Shown piece by piece: positions 9,126 through 10,574 of a stretch of 39,092 nucleotides of DNA (its first letter is position 1; each line of letters begins with the position of its first letter). Under the pieces are notes generated by a model, which saw only the letters and a program-made list of their open reading frames with translations, ran no database searches and was not told the DNA's origin. The stretch is taken from sequence record PZ452614.1. One strand, written 5' to 3'. Source of the stretch: a phage. A program made the position numbers and the translations under genes.

Positions 9126-9820
9126 CCCAAATTAACTATCAGGCACTGCGTGAAAAGGCAGAGAAAGCAACTAAAGGAAGCTACATCGTAGGGCATACAT
9201 CTGTTAACCAGCACGGCAATTTAACAGGAGTTTTTGTTTGCCAAAAATGGAAAGGAGAACCCGGTGGTGTGATTGCGGAATGTCATGTTAACTGCCTGAT
9301 TGAATCAGATGCTCAGGCTTATGCAAACGCTGAATTCATAGCAGAGGCTAACCCGGCTACCGTGCTGGCACTGCTGGATGAACAGGAAAGAAACCAGCAA
9401 TACATCAAACGCCGTGACCAGGAGAACGAGGATATTGCGCTAACGGTAGGGAAACTGCGTGTTGAGCTTGAGGAAGCAAAATCAAAACTCAACGAGCAAC
9501 GCGAGTATTACGAAGGTGTTATCTCGGATGGGAGTAAGCGTATTGCTGAACTGGAAGCACGGGAAATAAAGCCAGCCAAAGGTGAAGTTCTTGTCGTTGT
9601 TTCTGGTTTTACTGGTTGCGGAAAAAGCGCCATTGCCGGGGAAATAGAAATCGCGATGAAGGCTATTGGTGTACCGGTTAAGTGGACTAATGGCGATGCA
9701 GAAAAGCGCATGACTGGCGCTGACTGGCTGACAGCGATTGAGATGTACAAACCAACTGTGCGCATCGTGGAAGTTAATGTGCCACGCGCCGCTGGCATTC
9801 GCATCAAAGGAGGTGAGTAA
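9122..9820 (+). CDS. Hypothetical protein, possibly Ead/Ea22-like
   Basis: GTG start overlapping upstream stop; …EANPATVLALLDEQE… and coiled-coil-like segment; family assignment uncertain. Confidence 0.4.
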   Translation: MTQINYQALREKAEKATKGSYIVGHTSVNQHGNLTGVFVCQKWKGEPGGVIAECHVNCLIESDAQAYANAEFIAEANPATVLALLDEQERNQQYIKRRDQENEDIALTVGKLRVELEEAKSKLNEQREYYEGVISDGSKRIAELEAREIKPAKGEVLVVVSGFTGCGKSAIAGEIEIAMKAIGVPVKWTNGDAEKRMTGADWLTAIEMYKPTVRIVEVNVPRAAGIRIKGGE

Positions 9821-9996
9821 TGCGTGTGGCATGTATCGGCTTGTTACCGTATCCGACTCGATTTTGGGCTTCTGCGCTAATTGCAAAGCCGCATGTCCTG
9901 ATGGCTGACAACATCATCCCTGCACCAAAGCGCCGCCATACCGGTATTGCGGCTGCACGACGCGAAGCAAAGAAACGCAGGAGAGCAAAACGATGA
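9820..9996 (+). CDS. Small basic protein (58 aa)
   Basis: ATG overlaps upstream stop (TAATG); C-terminus ARREAKKRRRAKR; ends in an ATGA overlap with the next ORF; not in the supplied track. Confidence 0.35.
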   Translation: MRVACIGLLPYPTRFWASALIAKPHVLMADNIIPAPKRRHTGIAAARREAKKRRRAKR

Positions 9997-10175
9997 AAAA
10001 CCGTAAGGCAAAAATTCTGTTAGCTCGCAGAAACGGTGTTGGGGTCTGGCGCTGGTTGAGGATTAGTAACAGACGAGTGAGGTTGACGGGGTGTTGCGGG
10101 GTGATGGGGCACAGTTGTTGCAAAAAGCCCAGCGCGTCACAGAACAGGCGGAAGAAAGGGTACGCAGTAAGATGA
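9993..10175 (+). CDS. Small basic protein, paralog 1 (60 aa)
   Basis: MKNRKAKILLARR…WLRISNRRV…; ATGA coupling on both sides. Confidence 0.45.
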   Translation: MKNRKAKILLARRNGVGVWRWLRISNRRVRLTGCCGVMGHSCCKKPSASQNRRKKGYAVR

Positions 10176-10363
10176 AAAACCGTAAAGCAAAGATGCTTAT
10201 TTCCCGTGTATACAGACGTTGCTATCCCAGCCAGTGGTTGAGAGTTAGCAATCGCCGTGTGGTGTTGTACTTATATTCTGGAATTGCCAGAGAGGGAATC
10301 AAAGATAAGCGCAGCGCGGCGCAAAACCGCTGGAAAAACCACCTGCGCGCTAAAGGAGACTGA
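10172..10363 (+). CDS. Small basic protein, paralog 2 (63 aa)
   Basis: MKNRKAKMLISR…WLRVSNRRV…; diverged tandem copy of the preceding ORF. Confidence 0.45.
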   Translation: MKNRKAKMLISRVYRRCYPSQWLRVSNRRVVLYLYSGIAREGIKDKRSAAQNRWKNHLRAKGD

Positions 10364-10364
10364 T

Positions 10365-10574
10365 ATGGCTATTGCCGCAAGTTACACCATGCATCTCTAC
10401 TGTGATTGTCGCCAGTGTACAAATGGTAAATATCAAACGCCAGACTTCGGTGAGTATATCGGTACGTCATGGGCTGGCTGTGCAAAAGAGGCACGTAAGG
10501 ATGGCTGGCGAATAAGCAAAGACAAAACGCGTGCTTTTGCGCCCGGGCATAAAGTTTTGAGGATTAATAAATGA
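10365..10574 (+). CDS. Small Cys-rich protein (69 aa)
   Basis: ATG at 10365 after AAGGAG; …HLYCDCRQC…WAGC…. Confidence 0.45.
   Translation: MAIAASYTMHLYCDCRQCTNGKYQTPDFGEYIGTSWAGCAKEARKDGWRISKDKTRAFAPGHKVLRINK

Follow-up and report, generated by a model that had tools for sequence, protein, structure and literature searches.

Paralogous small basic genes p50 and p51 of Escherichia phage phiV10 and their place in a cassette array of temperate coliphages

The early accessory regions of temperate coliphages, among them those of Shiga-toxin (Stx) phages and P1-like phage-plasmids, carry many uncharacterised small genes, of which the gene family treated here is one. Among the closest described systems is the exo-xis region found in lambda and in Stx phages (Orf60a, Orf63, Orf61, Orf73, Ea8.5, Ea22), which also consists of dispensable small early genes. 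Its genes are reported to shift the lysis-lysogeny balance (PMC8614690), and published work on the region deals only with Orf60a, Orf61, Orf63, Orf73, Ea22, Ea8.5, Orf55 and gp05. Most studies of the proteins come from the Wegrzyn laboratory, and their models or solved structures from the Donaldson laboratory. The present analysis concerns two adjacent genes, PhiV10p50 and PhiV10p51 (p50 and p51), in a 39,092-nucleotide (nt) stretch of phage DNA (PZ452614.1; the window), of which positions 9000-11600 are 100% identical to positions 36227-38827 of Escherichia phage phiV10 (DQ126339.2 / NC_007804.2), a phage classed as Uetakevirus and epsilon15-like. PMC8614690 does not count the family of p50 and p51 among the conserved exo-xis genes that it discusses, and the family has no reported phenotype. 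The reading favoured on balance, and considered somewhat probable as a whole, is that p50 and p51 are old paralogues in a cassette array, held together by a junction of single origin, and that they have a nucleic-acid-binding, dispensable early accessory role.

The two open reading frames (ORFs) noticed in the initial annotation exist, both start with MKNRKAK and contain WLR(I/V)SNRRV, and together with the ORFs on either side they correspond to the annotated phiV10 genes PhiV10p49, p50, p51 and p52 (Table 1). The p50 and p51 proteins are 47% identical in BLASTP (E = 1e-11), and p51 ends in the canonical tail SAAQNRWKNHLRAKGD. At the DNA level, the window has exactly two occurrences of the 21-nt start motif ATGAAAAACCGTAARGCAAAR, with 0 expected from 100 shuffles, and a repeat search finds two conserved DNA blocks with spacings of 179 and 182 nt. 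Codon counting over the whole pair gives a proportion of synonymous differences (pS) of 0.69, which is saturated, and a proportion of nonsynonymous differences (pN) of 0.38, while the conserved segments have a pN of ~0.2 against a pS of ~0.7; within WLRxSNRRV, five of the six differing codons are synonymous, including a change from AGA to CGC. As change in the conserved blocks is mostly synonymous, selection is on the protein and not on the DNA, as had been suggested from the sequence, and p50 and p51 are homologous protein-coding genes under purifying selection. The DNA identity of 60-70% first estimated by eye proved too high, as 55% was measured over aligned codons (96/174). The other explanation considered at the outset, a non-coding repeat with frame-disrupting differences, was not seen, since the frame is kept in nearly all of ~110 cassettes from 80 loci. 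The paralogy was already on record, because the GenBank note of p51 reads 'similar to ... VT2-Sap08 ... and PhiV10p50'.

Table 1. Features of the p49-p52 stretch, in window coordinates
Feature	Position	Strand	Description
PhiV10p49	9820..9996	+	58 aa; annotated coding sequence; phrog_13831 match 6.9e-43
Shine-Dalgarno-like AGGAG	9979..9983	+	within p49 tail, 9 nt before p50 ATG
PhiV10p50, cassette 'A1'	9993..10175	+	60 aa, net +18, 4 Cys; internal cassette
27-codon N-terminal extension of annotated p51	10091..10171	+	other reading frame of p50 tail
Internal junction tail (ending in SASQNRRKKGYAVR and a stop)	10133..10175	+	canonical motif, 1-nt deletion, cut after Lys-61 codon
PhiV10p51 short form, cassette 'B'	10172..10363	+	63 aa, net +15; terminal cassette
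AAGGAG ribosome-binding site of p52	10353..10358	+	K-G-D/E codons at terminal-cassette end; 6 nt upstream
PhiV10p52	10365..10574	+	69 aa; annotated coding sequence; phrog_926 match 4.5e-37

A hidden Markov model (HMM) of the family was run over 80 related loci from IMG/VR viral contigs, and it shows a single cassette in 57 of them, two cassettes in 22 and three in one. In genome contigs, the locus search gave pattern matches of which none was confirmed. The cassettes fall into at least five or six types that differ mainly in the middle, labelled A1 (phiV10 p50), A2 (933W), A3, A4, B (p51), H (HK225) and the 'PGQRIRISNRLV' type. The two phiV10 copies share only 47% identity, but p51 reaches 94-98% with proteins from many E. 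coli prophages and p50 reaches 86-88% with genes that occur singly and end in the canonical tail (P0098, P0052, P0055); the p50 type occurs in other loci as three DNA variants that all encode one protein. The chain is found in four states, namely p49-B-p52 (L023), p49-A1-B-p52 (phiV10), p49-A3-A2-B-p52 (L010) and p49-A2-p52 (VT2-Sakai), so that VT2-Sakai and 933W have a single cassette of another type between the homologues of p49 and p52. In TL-2011b, a relative of phiV10, p49 is followed by a third cassette type (gp16) and a p51-type cassette, and the junction between the two is exactly that of phiV10. The close relatives elsewhere, the saturated pS and the shared junction mean that the phiV10 pair is one arrangement of an old, recombining cassette array, and the sequence comparisons indicate that p50 and p51 are old paralogues within it, with no local duplication. 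The three-cassette array A3-A2-B occupies positions 1194-1737 of L010 (IMGVR_UViG_3300008491_000015) and has two identical ATGA junctions. In L078 (2870-3189) the first, internal cassette of an array is 5'-truncated, hence decay happens too.

The internal junction has the same structure in all 26 of the internal junctions found in related loci, CAGAACAGGCGGAAGAAAGGGTACGCAGTAAG followed directly by ATGA, and in phiV10 the junction tail likewise abuts the next ATG and lacks the conserved W-K-N-H. Alignment of the internal tail (ending QNRRKKGYAVR and a stop) with the canonical tail (ending QNRWKNHLRAKGD and a stop) gives z = 3.8 with a single 1-nt gap, and in the other frame the junction tail reads VRSK-M, the counterpart of the canonical LRAK (LRTK in most relatives). 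An origin of the junction tail as a hybrid with the tail of p49 was ruled out (z = 0.2, compared with 3.8 for the canonical tail). The kind of tail follows the position in the array and not the cassette type, as A1 and A2 have the canonical tail when single or last and the junction tail when internal, and cassettes must therefore have been exchanged by recombination in their conserved ends. On the most economical history, all arrays descend from a single ancient join, head to tail, that placed a cassette ending at its Lys-61 codon directly against the ATG of the next. Loss of 1 nt would have shifted the frame, so that the internal cassette stops at the TGA inside the ATGA, and cassettes would later have been swapped, gained and lost, probably via homologous recombination within those ends. 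Of 5426 complete E. coli genomes, 147 contain the junction, and 104 of its 153 places are on plasmids, and records of P1-like phages, e.g. RCS47, have the same accessory block.

The ends of the array are conserved on both sides. Ahead of the first cassette, most related loci have the context CGCAGGAGAGCAAAACG followed by ATG, and after the last one the block CTAAAGGAGAgTGAtATG is conserved ahead of at least six different downstream genes. Upstream neighbours across loci are p49-like, EaE-like, ParB-like or other genes, and the downstream neighbours include p52-like genes and genes for a 171-aa protein, a 72-aa hydrophobic protein, an HNH endonuclease and Ead-like proteins. Such varied neighbours on the same conserved tail, ribosome-binding site and stop block give no clue to function, but they point to a module that is independent and dispensable and that sits where recombination is frequent. 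Of the 5426 genomes, 1124 have parts of the four-gene stretch, and p50 and p51 belong to a dispensable 'ea/nin-like' accessory block that is also present in Stx, other lambdoid, epsilon15-like and P1-like phages.

Two other origins of the repeat were weighed against an old cassette array. One is that a tandem duplication took place recently within phiV10 itself and that one copy then diverged rapidly (neofunctionalisation). It would account for two adjacent, homologous genes that lie head to tail, and the initial description as a tandem diverged duplication suggests an event in this genome, but it is at odds with the saturated synonymous divergence, with the far closer relatives of each copy in other phages and with the presence of this junction between cassettes of other types in TL-2011b, L010 and 20 further loci. 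The copies are not each other's closest relatives, and a recent duplication is thereby refuted, with next to no probability left to it. Still less credible is that the repeat is a non-coding element, such as protein-binding iterons or a structured RNA, or that p50 and p51 are fused into a single protein of two domains by programmed frameshifting at the junction. The spacing of the conserved DNA blocks and the p51 frame, which is open for 27 codons upstream of the ATG without a stop, would agree with one or the other, yet the substitutions are codon-periodic and synonymous changes dominate in the conserved blocks. An RNA element or hairpin at the junction was rejected, as the Rfam 15 scan of positions 9600-10800 on either strand gave no match at E up to 1 and folding of the junction RNA against shuffles showed no extra stability (z = +0.93). 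Frameshifting is opposed by the lack of an X_XXY_YYZ slippery heptamer in the p50 frame (CGG AAG AAA GGG TAC), by variation of the stretch CGG AAG AAA GGG among junctions, and by the absence of the upstream open frame from TL-2011b.

Both proteins match phrog_1380, a PHROGs family without assigned function whose proteins have ~60 residues and are extremely basic; p50 matches at 6e-29 (residues 1-60 on profile positions 1-60 of 62) and p51 at 1.4e-32 (residues 1-63 on positions 1-62 of 62), and the family HMM scores them at 92 and 112 bits, respectively. The members p50, p51, HK225 gp53, Sasha gp78 and the ORF called VT2-Sap08 of VT2-Sakai/933W-type Stx phages resemble one another in length, in motifs and in where they lie in the genome. 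It is a small family, restricted to phages of enterobacteria: the profile finds 44 clusters at E <= 1e-3 among 1.84e9 representatives, all source-named clusters are from Escherichia, Salmonella or Citrobacter, and one relative is found in phage Av-05. Three motifs are recognised, an N-terminal MKNRKAKxLL, a central (R/K)(I/V)SNR(R/K) turn and a C-terminal SAAQNRWKNH, and the sequence between them is highly variable. All three are present in p51, while p50 has the first two and SASQNR, its W-K-N-H being replaced by the junction tail RKKGYAVR. A Pfam scan of 27 aligned family members at E up to 10 gave nothing consistent, and PDB sequence searches with the profile, p50 and p52 returned only a chance beta-defensin-like CCKKP match (E = 0.04). 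The 90%-identity cluster that contains p50 has an unrelated, eae-like protein of 193 aa (P0096) as its representative, apparently a clustering artefact, and the possibility that the 193-aa and 123-aa members of this cluster are in-frame fusions was ruled out, as they are eae-like proteins wrongly clustered.

Within cassette types, pN/pS ranges from 0.00 to 0.44, with 0.08 for the TL-2011b type, 0.26-0.28 for the 933W type and 0.14 for the HK225 type (pS 0.46, pN 0.063). Among the 23 alleles of the p51 (B) type, it is 0.44 overall and 0.02-0.4 in the motifs, compared with ~1.05 in the variable segments, whereas all segments of the HK225 (H) type are below 0.25. Positive selection in the variable segments was not demonstrable, as a pN/pS of ~1 is seen in the B type only and at low divergence.

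AlphaFold models p51, from an alignment of 27 sequences, with helices at residues 4-13 and 49-62 and strands at 20-26, 29-34 and 39-44 (predicted local distance difference test score, pLDDT, 71), and p50 has the same predicted helix-three strands-helix (alpha-beta3-alpha) layout (pLDDT 66). The small ORFs of the locus are very basic, as had been noted at the start (net charge +13 to +18, isoelectric point (pI) 11-12), and p50 and p51, at +15 to +18, are hydrophilic, with a grand average of hydropathy (GRAVY) of -0.5 to -1.0 and no hydrophobic segment. The conserved positions are polar or basic and not hydrophobic, namely N3-R4-K5-A6-K7 in the first helix, S26-N27-R28 in the first hairpin turn and S48 to H57 at the start of the last helix, while the strand residues are variable. 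Cysteines are not a family trait: p50 has C34, C35, H40, C42 and C43, p51 a single Cys and TL-2011b gp16 none, and since Cys is conserved in no column of the alignment, a zinc-finger or zinc-ribbon family is ruled out. A fold search with the AlphaFold models gave no significant match, and three-stranded-sheet DNA-binding domains (lambda Int arm-binding, Tn916 Int N-terminal and AP2-type) were set aside for want of fold similarity.

The charge and the conserved polar or basic ends suggest a small nucleic-acid-binding module. It is accordingly put forward, tentatively and with slightly less than an even chance, that the proteins have an alpha-beta3-alpha fold whose Asn/Arg/Lys/Gln-rich ends bind nucleic acid. 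Both of these conserved segments would contact a polyanionic target that is itself conserved, most probably RNA or DNA, while no such contact would hold back divergence of the variable sheet, and the proteins would act as a non-essential early modulator of host or phage development. Several points weigh against this account. The structure models are of only moderate confidence, and the nucleic-acid-binding step is inferred from charge and residue type. Searches of p50 and p51 against Pfam, NCBIfam, PADLOC and PDB sequences gave no characterised relative, and no study of the family was found in the literature on phiV10, the exo-xis region and accessory-gene screens or under the peptide MKNRKAK. 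A few database members are frameshifted (P0063, P0064, P0076, P0088), p50 is left uncalled by the PGAP annotation of E. coli TT12B, and W-K-N-H, which makes up half of the best-conserved motif, is missing from the internal cassettes, although these stay intact and constrained. This last loss would be explained if an internal cassette formed a heteromer with the terminal one.

The same properties have been read in other ways. Small genes in accessory hot spots are often anti-defence genes, and the cassettes could be counter-defence or defence-evading proteins, with the variable middle under host pressure and the arrays stacking specificities. This is judged unlikely, although it would be compatible with nucleic-acid binding and would fit a hypervariable, dispensable accessory block that is common to unrelated temperate phages, with many cassette types and with cassette gain and loss; the contrast between motifs and variable segments in the B type is a weak hint in the same direction. 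However, a pN/pS near 1 at low divergence fits relaxed constraint equally and is not seen in the HK225 segments. Most characterised inhibitors are acidic or neutral, unlike the cassettes with their pI of 11-12, no defence-related model was matched in PADLOC, and the family is unmentioned in the accessory-gene screen searched. The premise on small hot-spot genes is that of bioRxiv 10.1101/2023.04.06.535777. A more elaborate version, in which the genes form a modular counter-defence or host-manipulation array, is distinctly unlikely; here a conserved basic two-helix surface would hold a conserved target, either nucleic acid or of the host, diversification of the variable face of the beta-sheet would permit escape from host sensors or a switch of specificity, phages would stack one to three cassettes, and the internal cassettes without W-K-N-H would work only as heteromers with the terminal cassette, by way of coupled translation. 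Marginally less probable again is a role as host-toxic, 'kil-like' peptides that act early in infection and harm or arrest the host through its membrane, division or translation. Lambdoid early regions do encode small host-killing proteins such as Kil, and the cassettes are early-operon genes of unassigned function whose products are very cationic, Trp-containing 60-mers with predicted terminal helices. Yet they are strongly hydrophilic throughout, and polar motifs conserved in unbroken stretches suggest that the proteins have a specific ligand and do not act on membranes; that they are carried stably as prophage genes in >1000 sequenced E. coli genomes is neutral with respect to toxicity.

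The comparison also bears on the gene models. PhiV10p51 is annotated with 90 aa from a GTG at 10091, and the 27 additional codons are probably not translated as part of p51, judging by the sequences of its relatives: single-copy homologues start at MKNRKAK, the extension is missing in TL-2011b, where the upstream cassette differs, and it is the form of 63 aa that PGAP predicts in E. coli TT12B. The VT2-Sap08 model, at 155 aa, over-extends a gene of 62 aa (L003, VT2-Sakai, 3427-3615). The gene is missing in several phage records: AP000422 has no annotation for the cassette, across which the p52 homologue H0078 is extended, and TL-2011b has none for the p49 homologue or the p51-type cassette (L004, 2155-2331 and 2501-2692). 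Ahead of the p51 ATG, a Shine-Dalgarno-like AAAGGG lies 11 nt upstream and is weak compared with the sites of p50 and p52, so that the p49-p50-p51 chain is probably read by termination-reinitiation, which would give roughly equal amounts of the products.

The chain itself is part of a run of genes in the order DUF1064, eae-like, p47, Ead/Ea22-like p48, p49-p53, ASCH and p55, the last being a predicted transcriptional regulator (phrog_536) at the operon end. This start/stop-overlapping run sits 3' of the replication genes and ends just before the small terminase subunit. The ATGA overlaps described initially are read in the sequence at 9993-9996 (p49 stop and p50 start) and 10172-10175 (p50 stop and p51 start), and a third at 10571-10574 joins the p52 stop to the p53 start; p48 and p49 overlap by TAATG (9818-9822), whereas p51 and p52 do not overlap and have a single base between them (TGAtATG, 10361-10367). 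Within the chain there is no site that resembles a promoter or a terminator, and a terminator-like hairpin follows p55.

The two flanking genes also agree with their first description as an Arg/Lys-rich ORF of 58 aa and a Cys-rich ORF of 69 aa. The p49 protein has a hydrophobic N-terminal half and an Arg/Lys-rich tail (15 Lys and Arg, net charge +13, pI 12), and p52 has four Cys (C13, C15, C18 and C39). Since the flanking ORFs evolve as coding sequence only in the stated frames, p49 and p52 are coding there: for p49 (16 alleles) the in-frame pN/pS is 0.24, compared with 3.8 and 0.89 in the other two frames, and for p52 it is 0.17, compared with 1.55 and 0.77. Both are negative against the family HMM (p49 at -0.9 bits), which ruled them out as decayed cassettes. 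The array usually has p49 as its upstream neighbour, but not always, the p49 ORF being missing in the relatives P0031 and P0058, and p52 is a frequent but likewise not obligatory downstream neighbour. Across loci, the Arg/Lys-rich C-terminal tail of p49 (KRRHTGIAAARRxAKKRRRAKR) is kept and the N-terminal part is variable; VT2-Sakai p49 (L003, 3275-3430) has an in-frame deletion of seven codons, some other loci have a different N-terminus (MRMENCLLPYLV), and in some prophages the whole p49 ORF is deleted, so that the Ea22 C-terminus abuts the cassette ribosome-binding site. In p52, C13-x-C15-x2-C18, C39, H10 and H62 belong to a conserved 69-aa protein that may bind metal, to judge from its Cys/His pattern, and searches of Pfam, NCBIfam and PDB sequences with p52 gave no match.

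Further features of the window were recorded in passing. Upstream of p49, PhiV10p48 (9122-9820, +) has an Ead_Ea22 domain (4.4e-41) followed by a C-terminal segment (residues ~152-193) with a Walker-A-like SGFTGCGKS, weak APS-kinase and AAA_16 matches (E 0.06-0.17) and a guanylate-kinase hint from phrog; VT2-Sakai carries a different C-terminal part. A tRNA-Arg gene of the phage (14730-14806, -) has the anticodon TCT and reads AGA; the codons AGA and AGG, which are rare in E. coli, make up 6 of 11 Arg codons in p50 and 3 of 11 in p51. A C4 antisense RNA (32155-32240, -; 77.7 bits) and, beside it, an isrK Hfq-binding RNA (32265-32340, -; 75.9 bits) are Rfam matches at gathering level. C4-type RNAs belong to P1/P7-type antirepressor-control immunity regions.

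Taken by itself, the locus is a tidy but ordinary case of paralogous phage ORFans, as the genes and their similarity were already annotated. The array of one to three cassettes and its single-origin frameshifted junction are an addition, being absent from the annotations compared, and both are now clearly described, along with corrected gene models (63 aa and not 90 for p51, 62 aa and not 155 for VT2-Sap08). Should it be true that the proteins act on host nucleic acids or defences, their natural variants would be a ready-made specificity panel.

Compared with known systems, the phiV10 locus resembles anti-defence clusters such as anti-CRISPR operons with an Aca regulator in being a chain of small, variable, horizontally mobile ORFs in a hot spot of accessory genes, with the predicted regulator p55 at the end of the cassette operon. 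In contrast to those clusters, p55 lies 1.2 kb away and is not adjacent to the cassettes, and the cassette proteins are very basic, not acidic, and have no homology to known inhibitors. A second, possible likeness is to the arginine-rich motif (ARM) of the lambdoid N and Nun proteins, a short, strongly basic, helical RNA-binding segment with a conserved Trp: SAAQNRWKNH may be compared with AEKQAQWKAAN of lambda N. However, the cassette family has a predicted beta-sheet core that is absent in N, and its genes are far from the nut sites and the antitermination module. The small proteins of the exo-xis region have no sequence or fold similarity to the cassette family, but the genomic setting is alike, as the Stx-phage cassette lies in the same early pL-transcribed accessory region as the exo-xis genes, directly downstream of the Ea22-like gene, and the phiV10 cassettes also follow an Ead/Ea22-like gene.

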